Below, one piece after another: positions 9,116-45,609 of a stretch of 64,000 nt of DNA. Under the pieces are notes generated by a model, which saw nothing but the letters and a program-made list of their open reading frames with translations, did not search any database and had not been told where the DNA came from. Position numbers and translations under genes: made by a program. Numbering within the stretch: the first letter of the stretch is position 1; each line of letters opens with the position of its first letter. This DNA comes from Spirochaetia bacterium (GTDB lineage: Bacteria; Spirochaetota; Spirochaetia; UBA9216): positions 448,001 to 512,000 of the forward strand of contig CAXXYH010000003.1 of assembly GCA_963677925.2 (NCBI GenBank), given 5' to 3'.

Positions 9116-9136
9116 AATATTCTTCTCCCTAAAATC

Positions 9137-10312
9137 TTATTTTTTCAGAAACTCTATTGCAGAGAGGGCATAAATCTCAACAGACTGGGCAAGACGCTTT
9201 ATCTCTACTTTTTCATCTGCAGTATGAGATTCATTTGCCGGACCGGGGCCGAGAATTACAACAGGGATACCGGCGTGAAAGATATGTGACGCATCGGTAC
9301 AGCCGCCCTTTCCCCTGTATTTGGGATCGGTTCCTGTTACCTTTTTAAAGGCCTCTTCTATGGTAGTAACAACTGCATCTGAAGCTTCAGTTATAAATGG
9401 ATCCCAGCCCTTGTTGATAAGACTTAATTCAGTTGTGAAACCCTCAGTTTCTGCCTCATCAAGAGCCGCCTGAATCTCGGATGTAATTGATTCTTCGGTT
9501 TCACCCGGAAGCATTCTGCGGTCGATTGTAAGAATGCATTCTTCAGGGATAATATTGGTCTGCCGGCCGCCGCTGATAATTGTGAAAGAAAGACTCGGCT
9601 GCTTAACCTGGTCTTCGAAAATTTCATTATAGTAGTCAAACTTGATTTTCTTTACCGATTCAATTACTTTTGCCGAATGCTCAACCGCATTCTTTCCTAC
9701 ATGCGGCCGGCCGGCATGACAGGCGGAGCCCGATATCTTGATTTCAAACCATCTCAAGCCCCGCTGTGCGTTTTCAATATAAAAATCTGTCGGCTCTGAC
9801 GATACAGCACCATCGTAACGGTTACCAAGTTTTTCAAGAAGCATCCTTGTACCGTTTTTACTGCCAGTTTCTTCATCTCCGATACCCCAGAACTCAATCT
9901 CACCATCCAGTTCTATACCGTTATCCTTGATAGCCTTCATAGCCGACATCATTGATGCGACTCCGCTTTTCATATCTGAAGCGCCGCGTCCGATTATAAA
10001 ACCGTCTTTTTCTACGGCTTGAAAAGGATCTACCGTCCAGTTCAATCCCGCAGGGACTACATCAAAGTGTCCGTTCCACAGAATTTTTCTGCCGCCTTTT
10101 TTACCGTATCTGGCAACAACATTGGCGACACCTTCACTTTTCACGATTTCGGCATCAATATCATTCGACAAAAACCATGAGAGTATAAATTCTGCACATT
10201 CATCCACATGTCCCGGAGGATTAACGCTTTTTATTCTGATAAGCTGTTTCGTAAGTTCTCTTACTTCTTCTGCATCTATTTTAAGTTCAATCATTTTAGT
10301 TTCCTGTTTCAT
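9137..10312 (-). CDS. M20 family metallo-amidohydrolase (ArgE/DapE-like)
   Basis: NGHFDVVP, GRGASDMKSG, DEETG, EPT, HAG, HTADE. Confidence 0.92.
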   Translation of the reverse strand: MKQETKMIELKIDAEEVRELTKQLIRIKSVNPPGHVDECAEFILSWFLSNDIDAEIVKSEGVANVVARYGKKGGRKILWNGHFDVVPAGLNWTVDPFQAVEKDGFIIGRGASDMKSGVASMMSAMKAIKDNGIELDGEIEFWGIGDEETGSKNGTRMLLEKLGNRYDGAVSSEPTDFYIENAQRGLRWFEIKISGSACHAGRPHVGKNAVEHSAKVIESVKKIKFDYYNEIFEDQVKQPSLSFTIISGGRQTNIIPEECILTIDRRMLPGETEESITSEIQAALDEAETEGFTTELSLINKGWDPFITEASDAVVTTIEEAFKKVTGTDPKYRGKGGCTDASHIFHAGIPVVILGPGPANESHTADEKVEIKRLAQSVEIYALSAIEFLKK

Positions 10313-10962
10313 TTCATCATTTTAAGAACACTTGCAACCCTGCGGCCAAGCATTTTTGCGCTTTTCATTCCAAGTTCATCATCAAGTACAGCATCCCTTG
10401 ACTTGCCCCGCTGCGGATATGTAGTTCCTGCAGCACCAAGATAGCAGCCGGGTGTGGGTTCCGGGCCTGTTCCTACAACAATCATATTCTGTATGAAATA
10501 GTAGTAATGGATAGCCTGAATAGTAAATTCCTCACCGCCGTTTCTATTTCCGCCGACAGCAATTGCACCCCCGATTTTATTGCTTAATGCATTCTGATAT
10601 GAACTTTTGCCATATCTAAGCAGGCCTTCGGTTCTATCCATAAATGCTTTTACCTGTGCAGTCATTGAACCGAAGTAAACCGGACTTCCTATGATCAGTG
10701 CGTCACATTCTTTAAGTTTTGGATAGATTTCTTCCATTCCGTCTGTAATGGGAAGACAGGGCTTATCTTTCTCAGCGGCTTTTTCATTACAGCAGGCAAA
10801 ACATGAAATACATGGCTTAATTTCATAATCACGCAGGTAAATTGTTTCAGTCCTGACTCCGTCTTCAAGAGCAGCTTCATCAAGAGCAGTTTTAAGCATA
10901 ATATCCAGATTAGCCCCCTTCCTGGGGCTTCCTGAAATTCCTAATATAAGTTTCTCACTCAT
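10309..10962 (-). CDS. Iron-sulfur flavoprotein / NADPH-dependent FMN reductase family
   Basis: GISGSPRKG, C-x2-C-x2-C..C cluster motif, GSPVYFG, FMDR, GGNRNGG. Confidence 0.88.
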   Translation of the reverse strand: MSEKLILGISGSPRKGANLDIMLKTALDEAALEDGVRTETIYLRDYEIKPCISCFACCNEKAAEKDKPCLPITDGMEEIYPKLKECDALIIGSPVYFGSMTAQVKAFMDRTEGLLRYGKSSYQNALSNKIGGAIAVGGNRNGGEEFTIQAIHYYYFIQNMIVVGTGPEPTPGCYLGAAGTTYPQRGKSRDAVLDDELGMKSAKMLGRRVASVLKMMK

Positions 10963-10972
10963 TAAATAATCC

Positions 10973-12253
10973 TTATTTTAAAAGTGCTACAACGCCGGAG
11001 CTAAGCCCGGGTACAAAAGTAATAACAAGCAGTGTAATTAAAAGTCCAATAATAAAAGGCAGAGCCTTCGAAACTATTTTGTCCATTGGTATTCCTGTCA
11101 TTCCCGATGCTACAAAAAGATTCAGTGCAACAGGAGGTGTAACAAAACCAACTTCAAGGTTAACAGTCATCATTATTCCAAGATGTATAGGATCTATTCC
11201 CAGAGGCTGCAGAACCGCAAGCAGAATAGGAGCGAATACAATTATTGCAGACATGGTATCAAGAACCATTCCTGCAAGAAGCAGAAAGACGTTAATTATC
11301 AATAGAATAACAATCAGATTGTCCGTTACCGAAAGCAGCAGATCACTTATCATTCCAGGTATCCCGAGCATGGCAAGCACTCCGCCCAAAGCCGCAGCCG
11401 GAGCAAAAGTCAGCATAATACCGCCGATGAATGAAGCGTTTTCGTTAAAGATTTTAAGCAGATCCTTCCACTTAAGTTCCTTATGAACAAACATTCCTAT
11501 GATAATTCCATATACAATCGCAACTACCGCTGCTTCTGTCGGAGTAAAGATTCCGCCGTAGATTCCTCCAAGAATAATCACAGGCATAATCAAAGCCCAC
11601 TTGGCCTCCCATAACGCGGCAAGAATTTCTTTAACTGATGACTTCTCACCGCTGCCCTTATATCCCTTTTTCCAGGAAACTATTTTAGCGATGACAATTA
11701 AAACACCAGCTTCTACAATTGCGGGAACGACGCCTGCAAGAAAAAGATCTCCAATTGATGTGTTTGTTGCACAGCCGTAAACAACCAGCGGTATGCTTGG
11801 CGGGACGATTACCCCGAGACTTCCCGATACAGCGACAAGACCAGTTGACCAGGTCCGATCGTATCCGGCTTTCTGCATATGCGGAATCATTATTGTTCCG
11901 ATTGCAGCCACAGTCGCAGGGGCTGAACCTGATATTGCTCCAAAAAACAGGCAGGCAAGAATTACGACCGTCCCAAGTCCGCCGGTTGTTCCGCCGCTGA
12001 ATTTATTTGCAGCGTTTATCAGCCGCCTCGAGAGTCCGCCCTTCTCCATAATAGCGCCTGCAAGAATAAAGCAGGGAACTGCAAGCAGAGGAAGCGAATC
12101 AAGGCCTGAATACATTGACTGGGCAATGAATTTTAAGCTTGTCACATCAAAAAGAAATGCAACCGATATCATTCCTATAGCGAAACAGATTCCTATCGGA
12201 ACTCCTATTACAAGAAAAAGAACTGCCAGGCCGGCTAGTACCATAGTTTCCAT
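10973..12253 (-). CDS. dctM: TRAP transporter large permease (DctM)
   Basis: LLAVP-x-FILAG, ISGSAPA, VIVPPSIP, GIFTPTEAA, TPPV. Confidence 0.95.
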   Translation of the reverse strand: METMVLAGLAVLFLVIGVPIGICFAIGMISVAFLFDVTSLKFIAQSMYSGLDSLPLLAVPCFILAGAIMEKGGLSRRLINAANKFSGGTTGGLGTVVILACLFFGAISGSAPATVAAIGTIMIPHMQKAGYDRTWSTGLVAVSGSLGVIVPPSIPLVVYGCATNTSIGDLFLAGVVPAIVEAGVLIVIAKIVSWKKGYKGSGEKSSVKEILAALWEAKWALIMPVIILGGIYGGIFTPTEAAVVAIVYGIIIGMFVHKELKWKDLLKIFNENASFIGGIMLTFAPAAALGGVLAMLGIPGMISDLLLSVTDNLIVILLIINVFLLLAGMVLDTMSAIIVFAPILLAVLQPLGIDPIHLGIMMTVNLEVGFVTPPVALNLFVASGMTGIPMDKIVSKALPFIIGLLITLLVITFVPGLSSGVVALLK

Positions 12254-12745
12254 TTAACTCTCCTGCAGTCCACTTTTAGATTCACGGATAATCTTCACTG
12301 TATCCTCAATCAGACGGATAGTGATTGCAGCAAACGAAATAGGTAGAACCGAATAAATCGCCCACTTCGGAATTTCTGTGATTGCAGTAGTCATTCCGAA
12401 TCTTTTAAGATTAGCCACAACGCCTATCAGTCCGTAAATAATAAAAACATTTGTTATCATAAAAACTATATTGGCAATTACAGCCAAAACAGTCTGTGCT
12501 TTCGGTTTTAATAAATTTGTAACTACTTCTATCTTTAAATGCTGTCTTCTTCTGGTTGCGCCTATGGCGCCCAGGTAAACTGACAATATAAAAAGTACGA
12601 TTGCAATTTCCTCAGTAAAGGAAATTGAGTTTCTGAATACATATCGTGAAACAACCTGAAGGAACAGCAGAACTACCATTACAGCAGAAAAAGATGCGGC
12701 TACTATATATTCAATATTCCCTAAAAACCATTTTAATCTTTTCAC
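12254..12745 (-). CDS. dctQ: TRAP transporter small permease (DctQ)
   Basis: 4 TM; QVVSRY..TEE..LGA..HL motif; lies between dctP and dctM. Confidence 0.92.
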   Translation of the reverse strand: MKRLKWFLGNIEYIVAASFSAVMVVLLFLQVVSRYVFRNSISFTEEIAIVLFILSVYLGAIGATRRRQHLKIEVVTNLLKPKAQTVLAVIANIVFMITNVFIIYGLIGVVANLKRFGMTTAITEIPKWAIYSVLPISFAAITIRLIEDTVKIIRESKSGLQES

Positions 12746-12777
12746 AAGATTCTCCTGTTCTTAATTCCCAAATATTT

Positions 12778-12800
12778 GCCGGCAGGAATATCCTGCCGGC
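12778..12800 (-). terminator. Perfect 10-bp GC-rich hairpin between dctP and dctQ (likely stabilises the SBP message or attenuates)
   Basis: GCCGGCAGGA-ata-TCCTGCCGGC. Confidence 0.65.
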
Positions 12801-12809
12801 TTCAAAAAT

Positions 12810-13910
12810 CTATTTAAGTCCGGCAGCGGTAATAATGCTGTCGAAATATTCAACGCCGATTGACTCTTCCATTTCGGGCCATGCAGTCATTGCCTTTTCC
12901 TGGAACACTTTCAGTTCAGCTTCTGAAAGTTCATACACTTCAAGGATTCCCTTAAGCTTAAGAAGATATTCAGCTTCTGCGTTTTTTACTTCGTTAAGAG
13001 TAAAAGCTGCCGCCTCTGCTGAAGCCTTGTCAAAGGCTGCCTTAACATCAGCAGGAAGCCCCTGGTAGAAATCTTCGTTTACAGCCATAGTTCCCACTGC
13101 TGAAAGGTGGTTTGTGATAGTCAGGTACTTCTGAACTTCTGCAAACTTGTAGTCGTAGATAGTTGAAAGCGGGTTTTCCTGACCGTCAACAACCTTCTGC
13201 TGAAGAGAGGTGAAGAGCTCACCGAAAGAAATCGGAGTCGGTGAACATCCGAGAGCCTTCATACCGGCAATGTGAAGCGGGTTGTTCTGAACCCGGATCT
13301 TAAGACCCTTCATATCATCCGGAGTCTTAACTGCATTCTTACTGTTTGTAAGCTGTCTCATACCAATAGGAGCATAGTAAAGAGGTCTGAGGTTCGTATC
13401 TTCAAGGCATTTCTCAGTCATTATGTCACCTACTTCACCGCCAAGAAGTTCCATTGCGTTATCCATGGAAGTGAAAAGGTAAGGAACGTCAAAGGGCTGG
13501 AAAGCATTTGTAAGCTCGGCAAAACTTCCAAGGGGCCAGTCGGTCATTTCAAAAGATTCATTCTGAAGACCGCCAAGTATTGCATCGGTACTTGTACCAA
13601 GAGTTCCGCCGAGATAGTACTGAATCTCAACCTTATCACCGAGTTCTGTTTTTAGAACCTCAAAGAATTTCTTGAAACCTCTCATATAGGGGTGATCATC
13701 AAGGTTCCGGCTTGTTGAAGCGTATCTGAGGACAATTTTGTCCGGATTATCTGATTCTGCAGTAATGAAGTCGGTTACTGACATAGTTTCACCGGCTGCT
13801 TTTGCCTCGCTGCCTTCAGCAGATGCTGTTTCAACTTTTGCCTTCACACAACCGCTGAAAATCAATGCCGCTGCAACTATTGCTGCAAATAAAATATTTT
13901 TTTTCTTCAT
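12810..13910 (-). CDS. dctP: TRAP substrate-binding lipoprotein (DctP family)
   Basis: Lipobox IFSGC; GLKIRV with the conserved carboxylate-binding Arg; LQQKVVDGQENP. Confidence 0.93.
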   Translation of the reverse strand: MKKKNILFAAIVAAALIFSGCVKAKVETASAEGSEAKAAGETMSVTDFITAESDNPDKIVLRYASTSRNLDDHPYMRGFKKFFEVLKTELGDKVEIQYYLGGTLGTSTDAILGGLQNESFEMTDWPLGSFAELTNAFQPFDVPYLFTSMDNAMELLGGEVGDIMTEKCLEDTNLRPLYYAPIGMRQLTNSKNAVKTPDDMKGLKIRVQNNPLHIAGMKALGCSPTPISFGELFTSLQQKVVDGQENPLSTIYDYKFAEVQKYLTITNHLSAVGTMAVNEDFYQGLPADVKAAFDKASAEAAAFTLNEVKNAEAEYLLKLKGILEVYELSEAELKVFQEKAMTAWPEMEESIGVEYFDSIITAAGLK

Positions 13911-14015: not shown

Positions 14016-15944
14016 TCATGCATGAAGCTTTTCTGCCAGCCAGCCAAGATTTAAATCATACAGCTTGCCCCTGGACGGAATGCCTTTATCATCCCACCCT
14101 CTCATCTCAAAAAGATCTTTTATGCCGTCGGCCAGATTCTTTTTATCTACCGCATAATAATTGGAATGTTCATTTGCAAGATCTTCATGGCTCCTCTGTG
14201 AAAGAGCATCTTCACTTGCTGCAGAACCGTGCAGTATATTAAAGGCACGTCCCATATTTTCAGCTCGTTCTCCGGCTTTCATAATTTCGTAAAGGCTTGT
14301 ATATTCCCAGCCTGTTGAAGCACGTAAAAGTTCAACAACCGTATTAAGGCTTATTACTCCTCGTGGAGCAAATACAAGTATGCACATACCCGCACAATTC
14401 TGAAAGCTGGTCCATTCTGAAACAGTTTTAACATTACGGGCCTTTTTCCAGGAAACTTCTGCAGGACTTATGGGTTCGTAAATCCCGATACCGCTTAGTT
14501 TATCCAGAACTATTCCAGGATTTGATATCATTGTGTCATGAACTGTGTACATGTGGTCGGTAGCATTGGCTGCAGTAGAGTATGCAAATGCAAGACCGGT
14601 TTTTGTCCGTGCATCGTGAAGAGCGTATTCCTGCTTTCTGCTCGTATTAAGATAGGCTTTGCTGCCTTTCCCAATCTTCTCAGCAGCTCTGAATGAACCT
14701 TCAGCAAGCAGAGATGAAAAGTTATCGGCCCGCATGGCTATTCTTTCAAGGAGAGTTAATACTGCGTACGAGTTTCCGAATTCAAGTCTAAGTCCATTGG
14801 TAAATTCTGTATCAATCAATCCGTTTTCAAAACATTCCATTGCAAAAGCAATAGTTCCGCTGACAGAAATAGTGTCCATGCCGAAACGGTTGCAAAGCTC
14901 ATTGGCTTTTGAGATAAGTTTTAGATCGGCCATCATGCAGTTTGCACCGAATCCTGCAATTGTTTCATATTCAGGACCGCCGAAAGCCGGATCAATCGAA
15001 AGTGAATCGTCGCTGACATCTACAACACGCTTACATCTTACAGGACAGGCAAAACAGCCTTCCCGCTTGCTCATGATAGTCTCTGCAAGTTTCTGCCCGG
15101 TAATTTCTTCTGCGTGTGCATTCTCACCGTATCTAAAATTCCTTGACGGAAACATACCTGCAGCATTAAGTGTGGAGATGCCGCCCGATGTGCCGAAGTC
15201 AAACAGTCCACGGCTTAAGGGTTCATTCTTGTAAACAGCCAGATATTCTTTTCTTAAATCAGATATCTTTTCAGGATTTGCGGTTTTTATCTCTCCGCTG
15301 CCCTTTACTGCAATTGCCCTGAGATTCTTTGAACCCATAACCGCGCCCATTCCATTGCGTCCGTTATAATGTTTTAGATTATTGGTTATACAGGCGTACT
15401 TAACCAGATTTTCACCTGCAGGGCCAATCTGAAGAACAGAGGCTTTCTGTTCACCAAGCTCATCTCTTATCAGCTGCTGAACCGTACCGGTTTCTTTGCC
15501 CCAGAGATCAGCTGCATCATTAATCTCAATATCAGAGTCGGCAATGCTGAGGTAAACCGGTTTTTCCGCTTTTCCTTCTATAATAACCGCATCCCATCCG
15601 GCCTTTTTAAGTTCTGGGCCCCAGAAACCGCCCGCTTCCGACTGGCCGAAACCGCCGGTAAGGGGTGATTTTGCTCCTACGGTATACCTGGGTGTTCCTG
15701 CAATTGGTATACCTGTTAAAACACCAGTAGCAAAAATCAATTTATTTTCAGCACCTAATGCATCTGCATCAGGAGATACTTCATTTAAAAGATAATGAGC
15801 AATAATACCCTTCCCGCCCATATACATTCTGTAAAAGGTCTGATCAGGAGTTTCTATTGTTATCTCTGAAGTACTCAGATTAACTCTGAGTATCTTTCCC
15901 GTATATCCGTAAATTTTATTCTCTTCCATCATAAAAAAAATCAT
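14016..15944 (-). CDS. aor: Aldehyde:ferredoxin oxidoreductase (tungsto/molybdopterin AOR family)
   Basis: GYTGKILRVNLS, AKSPLTGG, GMGAVMGSKNLRA, C-x2-C-x3-C, GPEYET, GMDTIS. Confidence 0.93.
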   Translation of the reverse strand: MIFFMMEENKIYGYTGKILRVNLSTSEITIETPDQTFYRMYMGGKGIIAHYLLNEVSPDADALGAENKLIFATGVLTGIPIAGTPRYTVGAKSPLTGGFGQSEAGGFWGPELKKAGWDAVIIEGKAEKPVYLSIADSDIEINDAADLWGKETGTVQQLIRDELGEQKASVLQIGPAGENLVKYACITNNLKHYNGRNGMGAVMGSKNLRAIAVKGSGEIKTANPEKISDLRKEYLAVYKNEPLSRGLFDFGTSGGISTLNAAGMFPSRNFRYGENAHAEEITGQKLAETIMSKREGCFACPVRCKRVVDVSDDSLSIDPAFGGPEYETIAGFGANCMMADLKLISKANELCNRFGMDTISVSGTIAFAMECFENGLIDTEFTNGLRLEFGNSYAVLTLLERIAMRADNFSSLLAEGSFRAAEKIGKGSKAYLNTSRKQEYALHDARTKTGLAFAYSTAANATDHMYTVHDTMISNPGIVLDKLSGIGIYEPISPAEVSWKKARNVKTVSEWTSFQNCAGMCILVFAPRGVISLNTVVELLRASTGWEYTSLYEIMKAGERAENMGRAFNILHGSAASEDALSQRSHEDLANEHSNYYAVDKKNLADGIKDLFEMRGWDDKGIPSRGKLYDLNLGWLAEKLHA

Positions 15945-20433: not shown

Positions 20434-22104
20434 TTGACTGAAAGAATAGATATAAACCTGTTTATCGAACCGGCAATACTGCTGGATGCTGATTATCAGC
20501 TCATAAAAACTAATCAGGCTTTTACCAGTTTTTTCAGCCGGGGCAACACTCTTGAGCAGGCGATAAAACTTATAAAAACAAGAGATGAAAAAAAAAATCA
20601 GGACTTTCTGCTTTTCATCTACGAAGATAAAGAGTTTATAATACATGTCTACAGTCTTTCAGATCAGCAACAGCTGCTCTGCCTGATTTCTGATTCAGCC
20701 CATATTGAAGACGCAGCCTTCTCTCTCTCATCAATTCAGTCAATGAAAGACGAGTTCCTCAACATGCTCAGTGTACTTCATGACGACTTTGTAATAATCG
20801 ACCGCTATGGAGTAATTGTCAGCGCAATGCCTAATTTTGAGACAATGTACGGTATTTCAAGGCAGGAAGCTATCGGGAAAACAATTTTTGAAATGGAAGA
20901 AAAAAAGATTTTTAATCCTTCCGTAGCTATACGAGTATTTAAATCGGGAAATACAGAGACCCTCCTGCAGCTTACCGGAGCAGGAAAATATCTCATGTGT
21001 ACCGCCATCCCGATAAAAGATAAAGATGGAAATATTGAAAAAGTCGTCAGTTATACACGTGATATTACAAAATATCAGACACTTAAGGATGAATTTGAAA
21101 ACCTCGAGGATACTTTAAAATTATACAGTGCCGAAATTGACCGTCTGCGAAAGGATCGTGATCCGGTTCCTTCTATAATAGGCCGCTCACAGGTAATCAA
21201 AAATATATCGGCTACACTTCTCAAAATTTCACGGTTTGATGCCAACGTACTTTTTCTTGGAGAATCAGGTGTAGGCAAAACAATGTTTGCCAAGATTATG
21301 CATTCCCAAAGCGGCAGAAGTGAAGGCCCGTTTATTGAAATAAACTGCGGAGCGATCCCCGAAAGTCTGCTTGAATCGGAACTATTCGGCTATGAAAAGG
21401 GCGCATTCAGCGGAGCCAGCAAAGAAGGTAAACCAGGACTGATTGAACTTGCAAATGAGGGTACTCTCTTTCTTGATGAAATTGGAGACCTTCCGCTTCA
21501 TATGCAGGTAAAGCTTTTAAAAGCCATACAGGAAAAGAAGATAATGCGGCTGGGCGGAGCAAATCTGAAGGAAGTAGATTTCAGACTTATCGCCGCTACA
21601 AATAAAAACCTGGAAGAACTTGTTAAGGACGGCTCATTCAGGGAAGATCTGTATTACCGGCTTAATGTAATAACCATCAAGATCCCCGGCCTGCGAGACA
21701 GGAAGGAAGATATTTTTTCACTGGCTAATCATTTTGTTGAAGTTATCGGAAAGAAATACGGACTCACAAGAACTCTTTCAGGAACCGTAATTGACTATCT
21801 TGTTGAATACGACTGGCCGGGTAATATCAGAGAACTTGAGAATCTGATAGAAAGAATGATACTAACATCCGATGACTATATGATAAGCGAGGAACAGCTG
21901 CCGACAAAAATTAAGGCCAGTATCTTTCATACAACAAGCAGCAGCAGTTCACTCAAAGATATTCTTGAATCGGTTGAGCGCAGACTCATAATTGATGCGT
22001 ACAAAAAACACGGAACCTCAACCGGAGTAGCCGCCGAATTGAATATAAGTCAGCCTTCAGCTTCTAACAAGATCAACAAATATATAAAAGAGACAGAAGG
22101 CTAA
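20434..22104 (+). CDS. Sigma54-dependent transcriptional activator (PAS + AAA+ + HTH)
   Basis: GESGVGKT, INCGAIPESLLESELFGYEKGAFSGA, FLDEIG, FREDLYYRLNV, WPGNIREL; N-terminal PAS. Confidence 0.95.
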   Translation: MTERIDINLFIEPAILLDADYQLIKTNQAFTSFFSRGNTLEQAIKLIKTRDEKKNQDFLLFIYEDKEFIIHVYSLSDQQQLLCLISDSAHIEDAAFSLSSIQSMKDEFLNMLSVLHDDFVIIDRYGVIVSAMPNFETMYGISRQEAIGKTIFEMEEKKIFNPSVAIRVFKSGNTETLLQLTGAGKYLMCTAIPIKDKDGNIEKVVSYTRDITKYQTLKDEFENLEDTLKLYSAEIDRLRKDRDPVPSIIGRSQVIKNISATLLKISRFDANVLFLGESGVGKTMFAKIMHSQSGRSEGPFIEINCGAIPESLLESELFGYEKGAFSGASKEGKPGLIELANEGTLFLDEIGDLPLHMQVKLLKAIQEKKIMRLGGANLKEVDFRLIAATNKNLEELVKDGSFREDLYYRLNVITIKIPGLRDRKEDIFSLANHFVEVIGKKYGLTRTLSGTVIDYLVEYDWPGNIRELENLIERMILTSDDYMISEEQLPTKIKASIFHTTSSSSSLKDILESVERRLIIDAYKKHGTSTGVAAELNISQPSASNKINKYIKETEG

Positions 22105-23561
22105 AAAAGTTCTGCCAGCCTTCTGCCTGCAATATTATAAAGAGTCAAAACTGCCAGAGTCCTCTGGTTAAGAAGCATTTCCTTCTGGTTCAGCTGCTCA
22201 TTGTAATCAAGCTCAACTGCCTTTACTGCAAGCGAAGTTGAGAGCCCCGCTTCCTGCCGGCTTTTTTCTCTTTCCAGCAGATCAAGATCATACACAAGTT
22301 CAGTCTCAATTAATTCAAGCTGCCTGTCTATATTCTTTATTGAATCCAGACCGCCCTCAAATGAAAGACTTACCTGTCTCAGAGCATCTTCAAACAGGTA
22401 GCGGGCAGCTTCTATTTCCGCCTTATCAGATTCTCTTCTTTTTTTATTTTCACCCCAGTCTATCAGGCCGAATGAAAGGGCTACTGTAAGCTGAGTGTTT
22501 AATTCTGCTTCACCAAGATTATCATATGCCTCAGAAATATCTTCGGCAGGATCTGTACTTCCAGGATTTATTAATGCGGTAACTTCAAATACGGGCTCAG
22601 TACCGTCAGGGAAAATTGCAGATTGAATTTCCAGTATTCTTTTCAGTTCTGATGCAGCCTGCACCTGTACAGATCCGCTGAACAGCGCTGCTTCAAGTTC
22701 TGCCAGAACAGTCCTGTCGGCTTCGATCAAAGGAAGAACAGGCATCTTTACCAGCTCACTTCCTGTAATATTTTTTATATCACGTAAAGCCGCCTCATAC
22801 TGGTAAAGAAGCTCTCTGCTGATATCTTCCAGTCTTCTAAGCGACAGTTCTTCGGCAATAAAATCCAGCCTGCTTATTTTCCCTGAAGCTTCATCTTCAG
22901 CTGCAAGCTTAAGAGAATCAGCCGAGATAGCTATCCGCTGTTCAATTATTTCAAGTGACATTTCAATGGACAGGGCCTTAACAACTGCAGAATAAACCGA
23001 TATTACAAGAGCATTTTCAGTATTAAGCACCGACCGGCTTTCTGAATTAACGCTTAGAACATTTAATTCCCTCGCAAGTTTAATTGAGTCAAACCGTATC
23101 ATGGATTTGGAACTCCGATCGGTAAACAGCGGCTGGCGGAAATACAATCCGGCTGAGGGGCTCATGAAATAACTGAGCTCTTCATCATCTGCCGGTGAAG
23201 AAATAATGAGGCTGCCGCTTCCGCTTAGATTAAGCAGGCCTCCTCCGGGAAGGAGTGTATCCAGAGCAAGACCTGCGCCGGCGGTATGCTTTCGTTTTCT
23301 CTCTACCGGATATGAATAATAATCTTCACCCAGACTGTATTTGTAGAGGGGGTTATTGCTGTCGGTTGTAAATGACAGGCCTGGAAGTGTAGACAGATTT
23401 TCAGCCGCTGCCCCTGCCAAAACCGAACTGTATGAGGCCTGTGCTGCTTTAAGCTTATTATCAGAAGCAAGTGCAGCATCTATAAGATCATTAAAATCAC
23501 TTCCATAAACATATGACCATGAACTTAGTATTACAAACAGAAATATAAGTTTATTTCTCAT
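22101..23561 (-). CDS. TolC-family outer membrane efflux protein
   Basis: Signal peptide, helical OEP repeats (QPLF, G-x-ISRLD, GLSTSL), last gene of the RND operon. Confidence 0.82.
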   Translation of the reverse strand: MRNKLIFLFVILSSWSYVYGSDFNDLIDAALASDNKLKAAQASYSSVLAGAAAENLSTLPGLSFTTDSNNPLYKYSLGEDYYSYPVERKRKHTAGAGLALDTLLPGGGLLNLSGSGSLIISSPADDEELSYFMSPSAGLYFRQPLFTDRSSKSMIRFDSIKLARELNVLSVNSESRSVLNTENALVISVYSAVVKALSIEMSLEIIEQRIAISADSLKLAAEDEASGKISRLDFIAEELSLRRLEDISRELLYQYEAALRDIKNITGSELVKMPVLPLIEADRTVLAELEAALFSGSVQVQAASELKRILEIQSAIFPDGTEPVFEVTALINPGSTDPAEDISEAYDNLGEAELNTQLTVALSFGLIDWGENKKRRESDKAEIEAARYLFEDALRQVSLSFEGGLDSIKNIDRQLELIETELVYDLDLLEREKSRQEAGLSTSLAVKAVELDYNEQLNQKEMLLNQRTLAVLTLYNIAGRRLAELF

Positions 23562-26500
23562 TTTTTATTCTCCTTTTACGGTCGTACAGGAAACCGTAGA
23601 ATGACGGTATAAACAGAAGAGCAGTAGCAGTCGAAAAAATCAGACCGAAAACAATGGTAGTTGCCATAGGTCCCCATACGACCGACTTTCCTCCAAGACC
23701 GAGCGCAGTCGGGAGAAGTCCGGCTATTGTTGTTAAAGATGTAAGCATAATCGGACGCAGCCTTGTAGCAGCCGCCTCCACTACAGCATCCCCGGTATTC
23801 ACCCCGGAGGCCTTTAGCTCGTTTATAAAGCTTATCAGGACTATCGAATCATTTACTGCAATTCCTGCAAGTGCAACACCGGCATATAAAACAGTGGTTG
23901 AAAATGGTGTTCCGGAGAAAAACAGGTAAAGTATAACTCCGGCAAATGCAAATGGGACTGTCAGCAATATCAATACAGGCTGTGTGTAGGAATTAAACTG
24001 TGCACCGAGAATTAAATAAATCAGAAAGGCGCCGATAAGAAAGAGCCTGAGGATATTGAGGATAAGATTAGAAAGTTCTGCGAACTCCCCTCCTACCTTC
24101 AGTTCAATTTCCGGATAAACAGGCGATATTTCTGTATTGAAAAAATCTTCAATCGATGTGTTTATATCAGGAACGGCATCATCATTGTAAGCGTCTGCAG
24201 AAATGGTAATCTCTCTTCTTCCGTCAACACGCTTTATCGATGAAAAGCCTTCCTCCTGCTCGACATAGCCGATGGATGTAAAAGGCACAAGGACTCCAGA
24301 AGATGAAGGAATTTTCATCTGATTAACCAGTCTGAATTCTACAGGTCTTTCAAGCTTGTATCTTACAACCACATCAGTTTCTTTATTTCTTCTGAAAATA
24401 GTTGTTGCTGTAACTCCATCAAACGAAGCTCTGACAAAGTTTCCCACATCTGCTACAGAAACACCCAAAGCGCTGGCGCGTTCACTGTCAATTTTAAGTC
24501 TGATTTCGGGCTTCCCGTTCTGAAGATTATCTTCGATATTAACAAGAGCATTATATGACCTTAATTTCTCCTGTATCAGTGTAGATACGGTTTTAAGATC
24601 TTCATAATCATCCCCTTCAAACCTGATGGTAAAAGCCTGCTCAACCGGCGGACCGTTAGCCGCTTTACGGTAAATCACCTTTTCAGGCCCGGGAACTTTT
24701 TTCAGTATATCTTTAACTTCTTCTATGATTTCAGGTATTGAACGAGTACGGCCGTCTTTTACCTCTTCAAGATCGACAGTAATCTGAGCCACGTTGTTAC
24801 CGTTTAAGTTTCCGGAGCTCCCGCCTGAATAACCTGCAGATGAAGTTATTGAAGTTATTTCACCATTGCCGATAAGCGGAAATAATTCGGCTTCCATTTC
24901 CGAAACAACATCAAGGGTTTTCTCGAGCCGAGTTCCGGGGGCCATTTCAATATTCACATAAAACAAGCTGTAATCTTCGGCACTGAAAAGATCCTGGTTA
25001 AGTCCGGGCACCAGAGCAAATGATGCAAGCATCATTATAATAAAGATTATTACAGTTAATCCCCTGTGCCGGTATACAGATGAAATAATTTTCTTATAAC
25101 GATTGCGTACCGGAACAAACCAGTCTTTAAGTTTTTTAGTTTTTGCAGAGGGCCAGTCTGCATAATGACTGGGAATAAAGACTATTGCCTCGAATGTGGA
25201 GGCGATAAGGGCTATGGAAACAGTTAGAGGAATAATCCGAAGAAACCGGCCTATGGTTCCGGGAAGTATCATCAAAGGAAGAAATGCAGCGACAGTAGTG
25301 CCAGTTGCCGCGATTACAGGAATTACGACCTGGTTTACACCTTTAATTGCAGCCTCGCGTCTGTCTAGACCGTCCTGCTGAAGCCGGTAGCTGTTCTCAA
25401 TTATGACTATGGCATGATCGACAATCATACCGAGAACCAGAACAAGGCCAAATAGAGTATTCGTGTTAAAAGTCTCACCGAGATAATCGAGTATCAGAAA
25501 CGTGATAGCAAAAGTGACAGGAATTCCCAAAGCAGTCATAAGAGCATTTCTCAAGCCTATAAAGACAATGAGTATGATTACCAGAAGAACAAGCCCTAGC
25601 ATTGCATTATTCAGCAGAACACCTATACTGTCTTTAATTTGAATGGTGGAATCATTCTGGAGCTGTATTTTTACACCGGGATATTCCTCGTAGGAAAATT
25701 CTGCAACGGCGGTTTTTACTCCTGCAACAATCGAAGAGGCATCACCGCCTGCAACTTTTGCCACCTTTAAAAGAACTGCATCTTCTCCATTAAACCTCAC
25801 ATATTCACCTGAATCGGAAAAGACAGATTTAACTTCTGCTAAATCACCTACCCTGATTACACCGCTTGAGTCGCTTGTCCTCACAATAAGTTTCTCAAAA
25901 CTCTCCGATGTATCAGCCTCTGCAACGGTTCGAACAAGGTATTCTCTTCCGCTTGTTTCAAGATCTCCGCCTGGGTAGTTTCCGGTATTTGACTGAATTG
26001 TTCTTACTATCTGACTGATAGTTATTCCTAAGGATTCCAATCTTGATTTATCAGCATCAACAAATATTTTCCTCTCACGTTCGCCGACCGTACTTACAGA
26101 TGAGACCTGTGAAATTTTTTCAATTTCTGAAGAGAGAATCTCCGAGGCTTCTACTATTACCGGATAGGGAAGTTTTCCATAGACAGCTACTTCAATTACA
26201 GGCAGGAAGTCAGCAGATGAGAACTCATCAATAATTGCCGGCAGAGTTCCGTCCGGTAAAGAAATCCTTGAAAACCTTGTCTGAACATCCTGTACATACC
26301 GTCCAAACTCATCATTTGTGATTCCGTCATCAAATTCTACTCTTACTGTGCTTAAACCTTCGCTGCTTACAGACTGTATGCGCTTCAGATCCTTTAAGCC
26401 GTCCATCTCATTCTCTATTTTTACAGTAACAGAAGATTCAACATCTTCAGCCGAAACGCCTGGATATGGCACTATGATATTCACCCAGTAAAAAGGAACT

Positions 26501-26616
26501 TCTGCAAACTGTTCCTGAGGCAGTTGAAGCATACTGAAAGTTCCTAATATTATGAGGGTTATCATAAGAATAGTTAGAAGAACCGGGTTTTTAACCGAAA
26601 ACTTTCCTATATTCAT
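23551..26616 (-). CDS. RND efflux permease (AcrB/AcrD/AcrF family)
   Basis: YPGVSAEDVE, S-x-S-x-EG-x-S, GMIVDHAIV, RLRPIMLTSLTT; 1021 aa. Confidence 0.95.
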   Translation of the reverse strand: MNIGKFSVKNPVLLTILMITLIILGTFSMLQLPQEQFAEVPFYWVNIIVPYPGVSAEDVESSVTVKIENEMDGLKDLKRIQSVSSEGLSTVRVEFDDGITNDEFGRYVQDVQTRFSRISLPDGTLPAIIDEFSSADFLPVIEVAVYGKLPYPVIVEASEILSSEIEKISQVSSVSTVGERERKIFVDADKSRLESLGITISQIVRTIQSNTGNYPGGDLETSGREYLVRTVAEADTSESFEKLIVRTSDSSGVIRVGDLAEVKSVFSDSGEYVRFNGEDAVLLKVAKVAGGDASSIVAGVKTAVAEFSYEEYPGVKIQLQNDSTIQIKDSIGVLLNNAMLGLVLLVIILIVFIGLRNALMTALGIPVTFAITFLILDYLGETFNTNTLFGLVLVLGMIVDHAIVIIENSYRLQQDGLDRREAAIKGVNQVVIPVIAATGTTVAAFLPLMILPGTIGRFLRIIPLTVSIALIASTFEAIVFIPSHYADWPSAKTKKLKDWFVPVRNRYKKIISSVYRHRGLTVIIFIIMMLASFALVPGLNQDLFSAEDYSLFYVNIEMAPGTRLEKTLDVVSEMEAELFPLIGNGEITSITSSAGYSGGSSGNLNGNNVAQITVDLEEVKDGRTRSIPEIIEEVKDILKKVPGPEKVIYRKAANGPPVEQAFTIRFEGDDYEDLKTVSTLIQEKLRSYNALVNIEDNLQNGKPEIRLKIDSERASALGVSVADVGNFVRASFDGVTATTIFRRNKETDVVVRYKLERPVEFRLVNQMKIPSSSGVLVPFTSIGYVEQEEGFSSIKRVDGRREITISADAYNDDAVPDINTSIEDFFNTEISPVYPEIELKVGGEFAELSNLILNILRLFLIGAFLIYLILGAQFNSYTQPVLILLTVPFAFAGVILYLFFSGTPFSTTVLYAGVALAGIAVNDSIVLISFINELKASGVNTGDAVVEAAATRLRPIMLTSLTTIAGLLPTALGLGGKSVVWGPMATTIVFGLIFSTATALLFIPSFYGFLYDRKRRIKNEK

Positions 26617-26627
26617 AGTCGTCTCCC

Positions 26628-27692
26628 TTAGTTCCTAAGTCTGAAAATAACAGGATATCCGTCTGCAAGACTCTTTATTCCGGTTACAAGAACTGTTTCT
26701 CCCTGCACGAGTCCCGATCTGATTTCTATCCGGTCGCCGGCAAGCTTACCGGGTTCTACTTCTGTAAGTCGTGCCCTTCCATGCTGTTCTACATATACAA
26801 AACTGCTGCCTCCGAAATTGACCACGGCTGCAGAAGGTATTACAAGGCTGTCTTCAACTTCAGGATTAATACTGACTACTGCGGGCATACCTGAACGAAT
26901 TCTTGTTCCGTATGGATTATCCGCCGAGACTATAACTTTGAAGCTGCCGGTGGCTCTGTCACTGCTGAGTGCAACAGCCTCTACTTCAGAATCTATTTCA
27001 AGTCCGTCCACCATGATTACTGCAGGGGCACCTTCTGATATATTTCCTACATCATCATCACTTACAAAAACATCGACCTTAACACCTGAAAGATCAACAA
27101 CAACACCTATAGGACTTCCCGTAGAAAGATAGCTGCCTTCTTCCAGGCTGCTGTTAAGATCTGCAAGATATCCTTCTAAAGGAGCAGTAATTGAAGTATT
27201 TTCGTAATTTTTTCGAGCCTGCTCCAGCCTGGCTTCTGCGCCTGTATAAGCACTTTTTGCCTTTATATATTCTGCATTACTTGCATTGCCGTTACGGTAT
27301 GCCCGCTCAACAGCATCATAGTCAATCTTTATACTTTCTAAATCCTGCTCTGCCTGCCTTAAATTGAGAACAGCTATTGAATCATCAATAGTTATAATTG
27401 GTGCTCCTGCTTTAAGATAATCACCGATACCGGCCTTCAGGGCGGTAATCTTACCAGAAGTTTCTGCTACAACCGAGGCTTCCTTCACTCCCCTTAAAAG
27501 CCCGGAGGCGTCAACTGATGAAACCAGCTTTCCGTAATCAGCGTTGTATGCCTCAACCGAAACAGGGTCCGGTTCTGCAGGTATTGGACTTGATGTACTG
27601 ACATCGTCCGCTTTTCCCGGGGAACATGAAAGAGCAAAAAATGAAGTTATACTAATTACTGCAGATACAATGATAATTCTGGAACTTTTCAT
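26628..27692 (-). CDS. RND periplasmic adaptor (MFP), lipoprotein
   Basis: Lipobox ALSC, ITAPLEG, IP-x2-AV, SGL-x2-GE; start MKSSR after AAGGAG. Confidence 0.92.
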   Translation of the reverse strand: MKSSRIIIVSAVISITSFFALSCSPGKADDVSTSSPIPAEPDPVSVEAYNADYGKLVSSVDASGLLRGVKEASVVAETSGKITALKAGIGDYLKAGAPIITIDDSIAVLNLRQAEQDLESIKIDYDAVERAYRNGNASNAEYIKAKSAYTGAEARLEQARKNYENTSITAPLEGYLADLNSSLEEGSYLSTGSPIGVVVDLSGVKVDVFVSDDDVGNISEGAPAVIMVDGLEIDSEVEAVALSSDRATGSFKVIVSADNPYGTRIRSGMPAVVSINPEVEDSLVIPSAAVVNFGGSSFVYVEQHGRARLTEVEPGKLAGDRIEIRSGLVQGETVLVTGIKSLADGYPVIFRLRN

Positions 27693-27720
27693 ATAATTCT
27701 CCTTATATAATAAAAGTAAT

Positions 27721-27787
27721 ATCACATAACGTGTTTGTAAAGAACTTTTATAAAAACTTTTTCTTTTACTTAATCACATTTTGTGTT
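27721..27787. promoter_or_regulatory. Twin operator-like pseudo-palindromes in the RND/XRE divergent promoter
   Basis: ATCACATAACGTGTT (27721-27735) and ATCACATTTTGTGTT (27773-27787), 52 bp apart. Confidence 0.6.
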
Positions 27788-27798
27788 ATTTTATTATT

Positions 27799-28680
27799 AT
27801 GAAACAGACTCAGGAATTATCCGACAGGCTCAGACTGTACAGAAAAAGAAAGGGAATCACACAAAAAGAACTTGCATCAGAAATTGGTATTGTTCAAACT
27901 GCTGTAGCCAACTATGAAACCGGAAAACGAAATCCCGATCTTGAGACATTGATAAAACTTGCAGATTTTTTTGAAACAAGTCTGGATGAGTTTACAGGCA
28001 GAGACTTCAATAATTCTCAGACAACATTTCAGGCCTTTAACTACCGTAAATCTGCTGAACTCTTAAAAGAAACTGATAAATTTCTTAACATATGTCTTAG
28101 CTCCAGAATGGAAGCAGGAAATTTCTGTCTTAATCTTCTCAACAGTAAACTTTATACCGAAGAGCAGATATTCCTTGATTTACTTATACCATCTCTGCAA
28201 AAAACAGGTGACGGATGGAATGAAGGAATATACGGAGTAGAAGAAGAGCATTTAATAAGTGAGACAATCCTTGAGTGCATTATTTCTGTACACACGCACA
28301 CCCCCCACTCCTTACCTCTTAAAGGAACTATATGCAGCATGACTCCAAGCGGAGAGCAGCACACACTTGGACTTCGAATAGCAAGCTATCTGCTTGAGCA
28401 TGCGGGATGGAAAAATCAATTTCTTGGAGCTCAGGTTCCTGCAGGGGCATTAATTGATTATTTAAGAGAAAAACAAACAGACATTCTTCTGATTTCCGTG
28501 ACTCTGAATGAAAATATTGACTCTGCCGCAGGTATTATCAAAGCCGTAAGGCGTGAATTCGGATCAAGAATTAGAATTGCAGCCGGCGGCGCGGCTGTTT
28601 CGTCTTTGCCCGAAGAAGCTTCAAAAGCTTCAGATCTTGTTTCCGATGATATAGTTGAAATAATCAATTGGGCAAACTAA
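27799..28680 (+). CDS. XRE-family HTH regulator fused to a CarH/LitR-type cobalamin-binding domain
   Basis: N-terminal RKRKGITQKELA..ANYETGKRNPD; W-x9-EH (WNEGIYGVEEEH); GEQHTLG..ISVT..AGG B12 Rossmann motif. Confidence 0.9.
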   Translation: MKQTQELSDRLRLYRKRKGITQKELASEIGIVQTAVANYETGKRNPDLETLIKLADFFETSLDEFTGRDFNNSQTTFQAFNYRKSAELLKETDKFLNICLSSRMEAGNFCLNLLNSKLYTEEQIFLDLLIPSLQKTGDGWNEGIYGVEEEHLISETILECIISVHTHTPHSLPLKGTICSMTPSGEQHTLGLRIASYLLEHAGWKNQFLGAQVPAGALIDYLREKQTDILLISVTLNENIDSAAGIIKAVRREFGSRIRIAAGGAAVSSLPEEASKASDLVSDDIVEIINWAN

Positions 28681-28818: not shown

Positions 28819-30666
28819 ATGATGAGCTCATATTCAGGCCTAAGGACTGTTCCAGCAAGAAAATATGAATTAATCGACGTGAAAGACCCGCAGCTTTATC
28901 GTGAACAGTTCCCCTATACTGAAGTGCCTAAAATTCTTTTCGATGGCACAACAGTTCCCCTGGATTTTCCGGAAGATATATGGATAACCGACACAACCTT
29001 CCGCGACGGGCAGCAGGCCCGTTCTCCCTATACACCGGTACAGATAAAAGAAATCTTTTCCATGCTGCACAAGCTGGCTGGAGATTCCGGAATAATCAGG
29101 CAGAGCGAGTTCTTCCTTTATAGCCATCGTGACCGTGAGGCTGTGGAAGCCTGTCTTTCACTTGGTTATAAATTTCCTGAAATTACCGGATGGATAAGAG
29201 CTAACGCTGAAGATTTCAAACTTGTAAAATCAATCGGCCTTAAGGAAACCGGAATTCTAACATCGGTATCCGATTATCATATATTCCTGAAGCTTAAAAA
29301 AAACCGGGCCCGTACAATGGATGAATATCTCGGCATAGTCAAGGCGGCTCTTTCAGAGGGAATAATTCCCCGGTGTCATTTTGAGGATGTTACTCGCTCG
29401 GATATATACGGGTTCTGCATACCATTTGCTCAGGAACTTAAAAGGCTGTCTGATGAAAGCGGTACACCTGTAAAGATAAGATTATGCGATACTATGGGAT
29501 ACGGTCTTTCATACCAGGGAACAGTACTGCCGCGAAGTATACCAAAGCTGCTGTATGCGTTTCGCAGGGACGCAGATTATCCGTCAGAATGGCTGGAATG
29601 GCATGGGCACAACGATTTTCACAAGGTGCATACAAACGCTGCAACAGCCTGGCTATACGGAGCATCATCATTAAATGCATCTCTGCTCGGTTACGGCGAA
29701 AGAACAGGAAATCCGCCTCTTGAAGCCGCGGTTATTGAATATATTGGATTGAAAGGCAGCAGCAGCGAACTTGATACGAGGGTAATAACTGAAATTGCCG
29801 AGTACTATCGAAATACAATCAAGGCTGTAATTCCCACTAATTACCCCTTCATTGGAGAAGAATTCAATACAACAAGAGCCGGTGTACATGCAGATGGAAT
29901 TTTAAAGAATGAAGAAATTTATAACATTTTTGATACTGGCAGACTACTTAACCGTCCGCTTAAACTGATGATAACAGATAAAGCCGGAGCTGCCGGGATT
30001 GCCGCCTGGCTTACCGATTATGTAAAATTTGAGAATACACTCGAAACGGTAGAAGTAAGCAAACGACATCCCGGCGTAAAAAGGATTTACGAATGGGTTA
30101 TGGAACAGTATGCTCAGGGCCGTACAACAAGTATATCAACCGATGAAATGATAGCTCAGGCAAAACACCATATTCCGTCCCTTTTTGAATCAGACTTTCA
30201 GAAAGTTAAGAAGGCTGCAGTTCTCAAGGCTACAAGAATCGCAGAAAAGATTTCAGGTTCCCCTGAAGTGCTCTCTATGAATGCAGATACAATGGAAAAA
30301 TATCTTAACAACATTGCAAAGGAAGAAGGGTCAATACAGCTTCTTTCCATTATCAATACAGACGGCCAAAGACTGTCTCAGGTATATACACAGCGCGGAG
30401 ATAAAGGCAGCTTCCGTAATCTGATGAATAAAAACTTTACTGAGAAAGACTGGTTTCAGAGTGTTCTTGATAAGAAAGAACGTTTCGTGTCGGATTTGTT
30501 TTTTTCAAAATACACAGGCCGTATGATTATTACGATAGCCGAGCCGATACTTAATCCGGAAGGAAACGTGGCGGCAGTTGTTGATGTTGATTTTATATTT
30601 GATGAACTTGTCAAACTGCTAAGCAATATTCCTGATGAAATACTGGAAAGAAGAAAATCATTCTAG
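28819..30666 (+). CDS. Re-citrate synthase (DRE-TIM metallolyase) with C-terminal Cache/PDC-like domain
   Basis: ITDTTFRDGQQAR, SVSDYHIFLKL, PRCHFED, EWHGHNDF, GERTGN, TRAGVHADG as in Clostridium/Syntrophus Re-citrate synthases; tail WF..FVSDLFFSKYTGRMIITIAEPI..GNVAAVVDVD. Confidence 0.87.
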   Translation: MMSSYSGLRTVPARKYELIDVKDPQLYREQFPYTEVPKILFDGTTVPLDFPEDIWITDTTFRDGQQARSPYTPVQIKEIFSMLHKLAGDSGIIRQSEFFLYSHRDREAVEACLSLGYKFPEITGWIRANAEDFKLVKSIGLKETGILTSVSDYHIFLKLKKNRARTMDEYLGIVKAALSEGIIPRCHFEDVTRSDIYGFCIPFAQELKRLSDESGTPVKIRLCDTMGYGLSYQGTVLPRSIPKLLYAFRRDADYPSEWLEWHGHNDFHKVHTNAATAWLYGASSLNASLLGYGERTGNPPLEAAVIEYIGLKGSSSELDTRVITEIAEYYRNTIKAVIPTNYPFIGEEFNTTRAGVHADGILKNEEIYNIFDTGRLLNRPLKLMITDKAGAAGIAAWLTDYVKFENTLETVEVSKRHPGVKRIYEWVMEQYAQGRTTSISTDEMIAQAKHHIPSLFESDFQKVKKAAVLKATRIAEKISGSPEVLSMNADTMEKYLNNIAKEEGSIQLLSIINTDGQRLSQVYTQRGDKGSFRNLMNKNFTEKDWFQSVLDKKERFVSDLFFSKYTGRMIITIAEPILNPEGNVAAVVDVDFIFDELVKLLSNIPDEILERRKSF

Positions 30667-42812: not shown

Positions 42813-45514
<2,702 letters not shown>

Positions 45515-45564
45515 AATCCAGACCTCCTTAACTGGTACTATTAAAGTATAAGAGAAGTTTTTTC

Positions 45565-45609
45565 ATAGATCAAATTGATATTTTCTAAGTTATGATAGAT
45601 AATATCTAT
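45565..45609. promoter_or_regulatory. OxyR-binding site in the oxyR / ybaN-katG divergon
   Basis: ATAG-N7-TGAT (45565-45579) and perfect ATAG-N7-CTAT (45595-45609), the latter abutting the oxyR ATG. Confidence 0.7.

Follow-up and report, generated by a model that had tools for sequence, protein, structure and literature searches.

A 64-kb stretch of the genome of a Spirochaetia bacterium (GenBank assembly GCA_963677925.2, contig CAXXYH010000003.1, positions 448,001 to 512,000), referred to here as the window, contains a gene for a putative cobalamin-binding transcriptional regulator that stands head to head with a three-gene efflux operon of the resistance-nodulation-division (RND) type. A prediction made from the sequence alone had described this locus as a candidate light- or B12-responsive efflux system, in which a XRE-type helix-turn-helix (HTH) is fused to a CarH-type adenosylcobalamin (AdoCbl) domain. 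The locus was analyzed by comparison of domains, structures, control regions and gene neighbourhoods. Loci carrying relatives of the regulator are identified by L numbers, and the features of the window locus are shown in Table 1.

The regulator, the pump operon and their control region

The open reading frame (ORF) of the regulator spans 27781-28680 on the plus strand, and its likeliest start is ATG 27799. No MerR domain was found in the protein with Pfam, and the head is matched by HTH_3, HTH_31 and HTH_19. Against the NCBIfam model TransRegCarH it reaches 50.2 of the 400 bits required, with a match limited to the cobalamin domain (residues 116-248). The translation reads GDGW-NEGIYGVEE-EH, followed in the Rossmann domain by E186-Q-H188-T-L-G191, S233-V-T235 and G263-G264, so that the E-x-H-x2-G, S-x-T and GG motifs of the original prediction are all present, and its codon positions for W140 (28216), E150-H151 (28246-28251) and H188 (28360) are exact. 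Residues Q33, T34, A37, N38, Y39 and E40 of the recognition helix are invariant in the alignment with the closest relatives, and over 121 sequences E40 does not vary and Q33, N38 and Y39 each reach at least 90 % conservation. Matches to the NCBIfam models RstR and HipB fell below their cut-offs and covered the HTH only, and there is no partner gene, so a phage or toxin-antitoxin role for the head was rejected.

Table 1 Features of the regulator-pump locus (positions in the window)
Feature	Position	Strand	Remarks
Divergent control region, 106 bp	27693..27798		Both operators conserved in alignment with L001-L004 and L006
Operator O1 (predicted), ATCACATAACGTGTT	27721..27735		Palindrome in the 17-nt spacer of the putative pump promoter
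Operator O2 (predicted), ATCACATTTTGTGTT	27773..27787		Palindrome in the spacer of the regulator's own putative promoter
Regulator gene	27799..28680	+	293 aa: XRE/HTH_3 DNA-binding domain, linker, four-helix bundle (B12-binding_2), Rossmann B12-binding domain
HTH_3 (Cro/C1-type) domain, residues 11-65	27829..27993	+	Pfam E 8.6e-18
B12-binding_2 four-helix-bundle match, residues 119-157	28153..28269	+	Bears W140-x9-E150-H151; Pfam 26.8 bits, cut-off 23
Rossmann-type B12-binding domain, residues 183-280	28345..28638	+	Pfam E 2.6e-14
Membrane fusion protein (MFP), periplasmic adaptor	26628..27692	-	HlyD_3 (Pfam); probable start ATG 27692, ribosome-binding site AAGGAG; the ORF listing gives GTG 27725
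RND inner-membrane transporter, HAE1-like, 1021 aa	23551..26616	-	ACR_tran 4.9e-189, covers residues 5-1009
Outer-membrane factor (OEP/TolC-like), 486 aa	22101..23561	-	OEP 2.1e-22 in two stretches (Pfam)

The best sequence matches of the regulator in the PDB are all light-responsive cobalamin domains, namely photocobilins 8j2w and 8j2x (1e-12), the cobalamin domain of the Chloracidobacterium MerR protein CtMerR (8jbs, 1.5e-10) and Thermus CarH (5c8a and 5c8d, about 3e-10, with 2.7e-10 for 5c8a), with LitR (3whp) and AerR (7te2) also among them. A phmmer alignment places W140, E150, H151 and H188 onto AdoCbl-pocket residues of Thermus thermophilus CarH (5c8a), GDGW..EEH..GEQH of the regulator corresponding to GEAW..EEH..GERH. 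PMC11796333 lists W131, E141, H142 and H177 as key AdoCbl residues, and gives GxxW, EH, GxxH and GxxxP (the SignatureFinder signature) as the motifs that distinguish light-responsive cobalamin domains. All four were found in the regulator when read by eye, as GDGW, EH, GEQH and GAQVP.

An AlphaFold2 model of the regulator, built with 121 relatives, has a pLDDT of 94.9 and a pTM of 0.75, with low confidence only in the inter-domain linker (residues 71-74). Full-length CarH, whether dark, light or DNA-bound, heads its Foldseek matches; next come the cobalamin domains of CarH, LitR, AerR, CtMerR and photocobilins (target TM about 0.75-0.83; 0.73-0.83 against 5c8a, 8c32 and 3whp), and the corrinoid proteins of methionine synthase and methyltransferases rank lower. 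Pfam, the PDB sequence alignment and Foldseek thus bear out the predicted combination of a XRE/Cro-like head with a CarH-type cobalamin domain. Two copies of residues 85-293 were predicted to pair with a score of 0.87, against 0.00 for the best of three controls; this mark is attained by 20 of the 30 proteins whose solved structure is a pair of one chain, and by 1 of the 23 whose structure is a single chain. At least 97 % of the contacts agreed between runs, with a partner pLDDT of at least 92, and the predicted symmetric interface sets the bundle helix 146-170 (around H151) against partner residues 205-221 in a head-to-tail arrangement like that of CarH. Solved CarH dimers exist, so this prediction may merely reproduce them, and it indicates likeness, not binding.

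All three pump genes were identified with Pfam, in agreement with the divergent MFP-RND-TolC operon of the original prediction. The adaptor matches NCBIfam RND_mfp (TIGR01730) with 176.8 bits (cut-off 94.9; 5.3e-52), and the transporter, whose closest solved structure is MexK (2.1e-98), scores 491.8 against RND_permease_2, below the cut-off of 1250. The genes abut or overlap, and since the OEP gene overlaps the stop of the RND gene by 11 nt the three were taken to form one operon. With a permease of about 1000 aa, an adaptor and an outer-membrane factor in one operon, the pump is a tripartite RND system of the HAE1 type.

Because the MFP gene starts at ATG 27692, the head-to-head gap is 27693-27798, or 106 bp, close to the 105 bp or so first predicted. 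It contains the two predicted operators, 15-bp palindromes of the form ATCAC-N5-GTGTT (consensus A-Y-CAC-N5-GTG-K-T) that lie 52 bp apart. The pattern YCAC-N5-GTGKT has two sites in the 64-kb window, both of them in this region, with 0.66 expected for the whole window. Paired palindromes 49-52 bp apart also precede the regulator in L001-L004 and L006, pairs 49 bp apart occur in several Proteiniclasticum loci and L041, and a single copy lies upstream of the regulator in L023, L037 and L054. In the 270 bp upstream of the regulator the density of CAC-N5-GTG over 81 loci is 2.87 per kb, versus 0.13 per kb in the other intergenic DNA of these loci, and at least one such site precedes the regulator in 50 of the 81.

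Each palindrome, as the sequence was read by us, occupies the 16-17-nt spacer between -35-like and -10-like hexamers. The putative pump promoter on the minus strand has TTTACA (27741-27736), N17 and TACTTT (27718-27713), and in L002-L006 the corresponding elements are TTGATT or TTGTTT, N17, and TATAAT, TATTAT or TATCAT, with the operator in between. On the regulator side the putative -35 and -10 of the window are TTTTAC (27764-27769) and TATTTT (27787-27792), and across loci TTTTAC, TTGCAT or TTGTTT is followed by N17 and TATTTT. In the window, L001, L002, L003, L004 and L006, 6 nt separate the end of this -10 (TAAATT in L004) from the start codon, and none of these six has a Shine-Dalgarno sequence before the regulator start (27787-27801 in the window), which suggests that the regulator mRNA is leaderless; in L023, L037 and L054, by contrast, the regulator has a leader that contains GGAG or GAGAG. 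The layout would be that of a repressor occluding two divergent promoters, and an oligomer bridging the two operators would fit their conserved spacing, which is about five helical turns.

Relatives of the regulator and their gene neighbourhoods

A word-indexed protein search returned five full-length relatives (88, 44, 43, 37 and 35 % identity), in which W140, E150, H151 and H188 do not vary; the same four residues are invariant in the six closest relatives. The very small family that this result implied was rejected as a sensitivity artefact, as shown by an exhaustive profile search, which gave 1302 clusters (50 % identity) at E<=1e-30, and by a genome scan, which found a relative in 144 species genomes. 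The top 150 profile matches are mostly single-stretch proteins of about 290-310 aa, and some of the strongest are long multi-HTH proteins without W-x9-EH. Among the 149 top matches retrieved by this search, which is blind to the motif, W-x9-EH is present in 122 of 132 full-length-sized proteins. W140, E150, H151, H188, S233 and G263-G264 are at least 90 % conserved in 121 sequences, and the relatives are 23-42 % identical to the window protein.

Eighty loci were kept from the genome scan, from Spirochaetota and Bacillota (Clostridia, Tissierellia and others). Neighbourhoods were counted using tblastn with the window pump proteins and by clustering of the neighbours within 5 kb, named by Pfam and NCBIfam. 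Besides the window, a divergent MFP-RND pair was found in 8 of the 80 loci, all from spirochaetes, with the same divergent order and with regulators 32-88 % identical to that of the window (best tblastn segment); an OEP gene accompanies it in four of the eight by gene calls and in five by tblastn. A divergent permease of the FtsX/MacB-Lol type occurs in 29 loci, all from Bacillota, with an ATP-binding cassette (ABC) ATPase alongside except in L049, L061 and L068. Co-directional RND-MFP sets were found in three loci (L051, about 5870-10200; L079, about 8830-13300; and L073), where an RND-like permease, with 27-28 % identity to that of the window, and an MFP come after the regulator on its own strand. 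These come from two Bacillota genomes and one labelled delta proteobacterium; RND-plus-MFP sets are uncommon in presumed monoderms.

Genes for class II photolyase-like proteins, of the type acting on cyclobutane pyrimidine dimers, adjoin the regulator in 16 of the 80 loci; four that were scanned score 443-516 bits against phr2, just under its cut-off of 550. In L023 and L037 the photolyase start overlaps the regulator stop, L054 has the same gene order, and in all three the RND pump lies on the other side. Phytoene synthase or CrtI-like oxidases are present in seven loci, HMG-CoA synthase in four and methyl-accepting chemotaxis proteins in 13. In Proteiniclasticum the photolyase belongs to the ABC pump operon; the divergent strand encodes, in this order, a stand-alone cobalamin domain, the permease, the ATPase, a photolyase, an unknown protein of 220 aa and a DUF2177 protein.

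Operator-like sites occur before phytoene synthase (L080), before HMG-CoA synthase (L016 and L036) and, in L028, between a crtI-psy-crtI operon and the HMG-CoA synthase gene that diverges from it. Palindromes ATCACGTATAGTGTT and ATCACAAAACGTGTT were also seen at L020:2260 and L038:6365, upstream of genes for proteins with multiple fasciclin domains, which may be an unexpected further member of the regulon. In the spirochaete loci L016, L039 and L067 (about 9000-13700) the regulator is followed by HMG-CoA synthase, an unnamed protein of 470-500 aa and a fused HemC-HemD; this fusion of porphobilinogen deaminase and uroporphyrinogen-III synthase ties the regulator family to genes of tetrapyrrole synthesis.

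A stand-alone cobalamin-binding protein opens the divergent pump operon in 17 Clostridia loci (L009:2374-3033, L013:7212-7904, L040:7135-7803 and 14 more). These proteins of 219-239 aa cluster with the regulator, and in each of three that were scanned Pfam found B12-binding and no other domain. ExHxxG is kept and W-x9-EH lost in all 17, and they may be AerR-like co-regulators or B12 carriers that partner the XRE-headed regulator.

A maximum-likelihood tree was made of 79 regulators by a quick search with SH-aLRT support only; L067 and L075, in which no ORF was called, were left out. The window falls in a clade of six rows, all RND-linked (SH-aLRT 99), which is sister to a clade of 36 rows comprising all 29 ABC-linked ones and seven others, inside a clade of 43 rows (97). 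In the clade that encloses these (91), 41 of the 54 rows, window included, have a pump context. The Marispirochaeta loci with both RND pump and photolyase (L023, L037 and L054) form a separate clade, so that the linkage to RND genes put forward in the original prediction is conserved in two separate clades. The same regulator family and operator are found with RND pumps in diderm spirochaetes and with MacB/Lol-type ABC transporters in monoderm Clostridia, which suggests that export as such is the conserved output.

Proposed mechanism and alternative explanations

The regulator is probably, judging from its motifs, control region and relatives, a CarH-like, AdoCbl-dependent and light-relieved repressor with a XRE head, its targets being its own gene and the pump; it would act by repression rather than activation. 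In the dark, the AdoCbl-loaded cobalamin domains would pair head to tail, probably going on to a dimer of dimers, and the HTH pairs would occupy O1 and O2. Occupancy of these operators would silence the mfp-rnd-oep operon along with the gene of the regulator itself, whose mRNA is probably leaderless. Light would cleave the Co-C bond, H151 would take the upper axial position, the oligomer would dissociate, and with cooperative DNA binding lost the pump would be expressed, as a photoprotective output comparable to the photolyases and carotenoid genes of the relatives. The pump would most plausibly expel endogenous photosensitisers (porphyrins, corrinoids) or products of photo-oxidation, by analogy with MacAB-TolC, which exports protoporphyrin IX in Escherichia coli according to PMC4263509; the substrates named in the original prediction, tetrapyrroles or lipids, were a guess.

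Three signals, light, corrinoid or redox status, had been considered in that prediction. The comparative context favours light, because relatives of the regulator adjoin photolyase and carotenoid genes and operator-like sites precede carotenoid and HMG-CoA-synthase genes. The sensor itself is read as a light sensor because its motifs are those specific to photoreceptors, its closest structural relatives are photoreceptors, and photolyase, carotenoid and mevalonate genes are neighbours of its family.

A number of observations weigh against this interpretation. Counts of loci are inflated by relatedness and overstate the number of independent events; by the tree there are at least two independent lineages for the divergent RND pump and about four for the photolyase adjacency. 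The peptide pattern of the genome scan included the EH motif, which makes the conservation of EH in the 79 locus regulators partly circular, and the motif-blind figure of 122 in 132 is the unbiased one that replaces it. A strict CAC-N5-GTG site upstream of the regulator is absent in 31 of the 81 loci. A consensus promoter scan gave three plus-strand sites and no minus-strand promoter, and the pump -10 as read, TACTTT, is weak. The RND transporter, a generic HAE1 type nearest MexK, gives no clue to a substrate. The 64-kb window has no photolyase and no gene for cobalamin biosynthesis or uptake, and Rfam matched no family, and thus no cobalamin riboswitch, over its whole length. It does encode an aldehyde:ferredoxin oxidoreductase (14016-15944) and a hemerythrin, and the host looks like an anaerobe that may live in the dark.

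Unlikely, in our estimate, is a dark sensor of corrinoid availability, which would read a bound cobalamin form as signalling a nutrient or a toxin and would repress or derepress the pump with the B12 status of the cell; the pump might then remove cobalt, or corrinoids that are in excess or unusable. Intact cobalamin-binding residues and an apparently anaerobic host are consistent with such a sensor, as is the presence next to the regulator, in some loci, of an ECF-transporter S component, a ZIP metal transporter or HemC-HemD. However, W-x9-EH is the photoreceptor pocket for the upper ligand of AdoCbl and is kept in most of the family, the recurrent neighbours are photolyases and carotenoid genes and not cob, cbi or btu, and the lack of a cobalamin riboswitch or B12 gene in the window counts against this sensor too.

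Less likely again is a local repressor that works independently of the cofactor, its cobalamin-like domain serving only to oligomerise or to bind a pump substrate, as in B12-independent repressors of the CarA type or classical pump repressors. RND operons usually have divergent local repressors, and the dimer was predicted with no ligand in the model. The cofactor residues have nevertheless stayed at least 90 % conserved at 23-42 % identity, and the 17 stand-alone paralogues indicate that W-x9-EH can decay when it is not needed. Very improbable is a sensor of redox state or oxygen that uses the cobalt centre or an H151 ligand switch, with the pump turned on by oxidative stress and not by light as such: a redox-driven ligand switch is described for CarH in PMC10442372, and KatG, YaaA and hemerythrin genes lie in the window, although at least 15 kb away and without an operator site, but the operator pattern occurs nowhere else in the window and the co-transcription of a light-dependent enzyme, photolyase, with the regulator in L023, L037 and L054 points to light. 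Jointly the three alternatives account for about a third of the probability.

A wider reading is offered tentatively, at slightly below even confidence. The XRE-headed B12 photoreceptors may be a large undescribed sister class to CarH/LitR in Spirochaetota and Clostridia, with many anaerobes among them, whose commonest output would be envelope-spanning efflux in place of pigment synthesis, by RND pumps in diderms and MacB/Lol-type ABC pumps in monoderms, often with photolyase in the pump operon. Light-induced export of endogenous photosensitisers, for example porphyrins or corrinoids, would then be a widespread and unrecognised form of photoprotection in bacteria, and phased palindromes would be bridged by a B12-driven tetramer.

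Relation to described systems and other features of the window

The regulator has the same bundle and Rossmann module as the MerR-type AdoB12 photoreceptor repressors CarH and LitR of Thermus thermophilus, Myxococcus xanthus and Bacillus megaterium, and shares with them W-x9-EH and the lower axial histidine in ExHxxG. The arrangement is also of the repressor type, with predicted operators over promoters, and the relatives occur in a context of carotenoid genes and photolyase. Unlike CarH/LitR, the window regulator has a XRE/HTH_3 head and not a MerR winged helix, and its local target is a tripartite efflux pump. CarH binds tandem 11-bp direct repeats, whereas the operators predicted in the window are two separate palindromes about 50 bp apart. 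The best solved sequence matches, the photocobilins SasPcob and AbDPcob (8j2w, 8j2x, 8j2y) and the CtMerR domain (8jbs, 8jbt), are reported as experimentally light-responsive AdoCbl domains in PMC10979010 and PMC11796333. The photocobilins have a biliverdin-binding globin domain or enzyme outputs and no DNA-binding head, and CtMerR has a MerR head. AerR of Rhodobacter capsulatus (7te2) has the same cobalamin domain fold, and the stand-alone Clostridia paralogues resemble its type; AerR lacks a DNA-binding domain and acts through CrtJ, whereas the window regulator carries its own HTH. The HTH_3 fold and palindromic operators are common to XRE/Cro-C1 repressors (P22 C2, SinR, HipB, ImmR-type), but the C-terminus of the regulator is a cobalamin photoreceptor module in place of a peptidase, an antitoxin partner or a simple dimerisation domain. 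HAE1 pumps of the MexJK and AcrAB types, which are under local repression, likewise consist of a full MFP-RND-OEP operon with a divergent repressor gene; in the window the repressor is not of the TetR, MarR or LysR family and the proposed inducer is light, not a pump substrate.

A full-text literature search found no description of a XRE-type B12 photoreceptor or of efflux controlled by B12 or light, although reviews, figures and supplements outside the search may list the architecture. The candidate PMC8123684 was rejected as a prior description, 'xre' there being an unrelated gene. The parts of P2TF available (PMC3532121) mention only MerR plus B12-binding, PMC11796333 in its accessible text refers to light-responsive cobalamin domains fused to 'HTH' and other outputs and to nothing more specific, and that of PMC10979010 speaks of complex architectures known from genomes but without experimental evidence. 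The architecture that the original prediction called apparently new is common among known sequences, and is new only in that no describing paper was found. What is new, or at least uncharacterised, is the DNA-binding head, the operator logic and the pump output, the sensor being already known.

Work on B12 photoreceptors has so far dealt almost wholly with MerR-type CarH/LitR proteins controlling carotenoids, and a second DNA-binding chassis would widen the range of their regulons. For optogenetics, a XRE chassis with defined palindromic operators would also mean a new switch for green light whose operator is simple. A conserved link from light to efflux through both RND and ABC transporters would, if true, add pumps to the recognised photoprotective responses and offer a physiological role for 'multidrug' pumps in environmental anaerobes. 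The phased palindromes would likewise couple B12-driven tetramerisation to DNA in a new manner, in which two operators are bridged and no tandem repeats are read.

No carotenoid gene lies within about 10 kb of the locus, as had been stated in the original prediction, and no photolyase adjoins the window copy of the regulator. The sole carotenoid-flavoured gene of the window lies 11 kb from the regulator, at 39520-40548 on the minus strand beside a TetR-like gene; it belongs to the CrtC N-terminal lipocalin and Lipocalin_9 families (3.8e-23), and has no NCBIfam match and no operator site. Oxidative-stress genes at 42813-46542, 55663-56424 and 1526-1930 encode a KatG-type catalase-peroxidase (735 aa), a DUF454 protein, a divergent LysR-type regulator, YaaA and hemerythrin. 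A PAS-containing sigma-54 activator (20434-22104, plus strand) converges on the end of the OEP gene with a 4-nt overlap, and class-III aminotransferase and aldehyde dehydrogenase genes lie upstream of it on the other strand. Since the adjacency is kept only in L001, the activator probably has nothing to do with the pump. Directly downstream of the regulator, at 28819-30666 on the plus strand, a gene encodes a 615-aa protein with an HMGL-like catalytic domain (of the homocitrate/isopropylmalate-synthase type) and a C-terminal dCache/PDC sensor, an unusual fusion of enzyme and sensor. It was rejected as part of the regulator-pump unit, being kept only in the 88 % identical locus L001.

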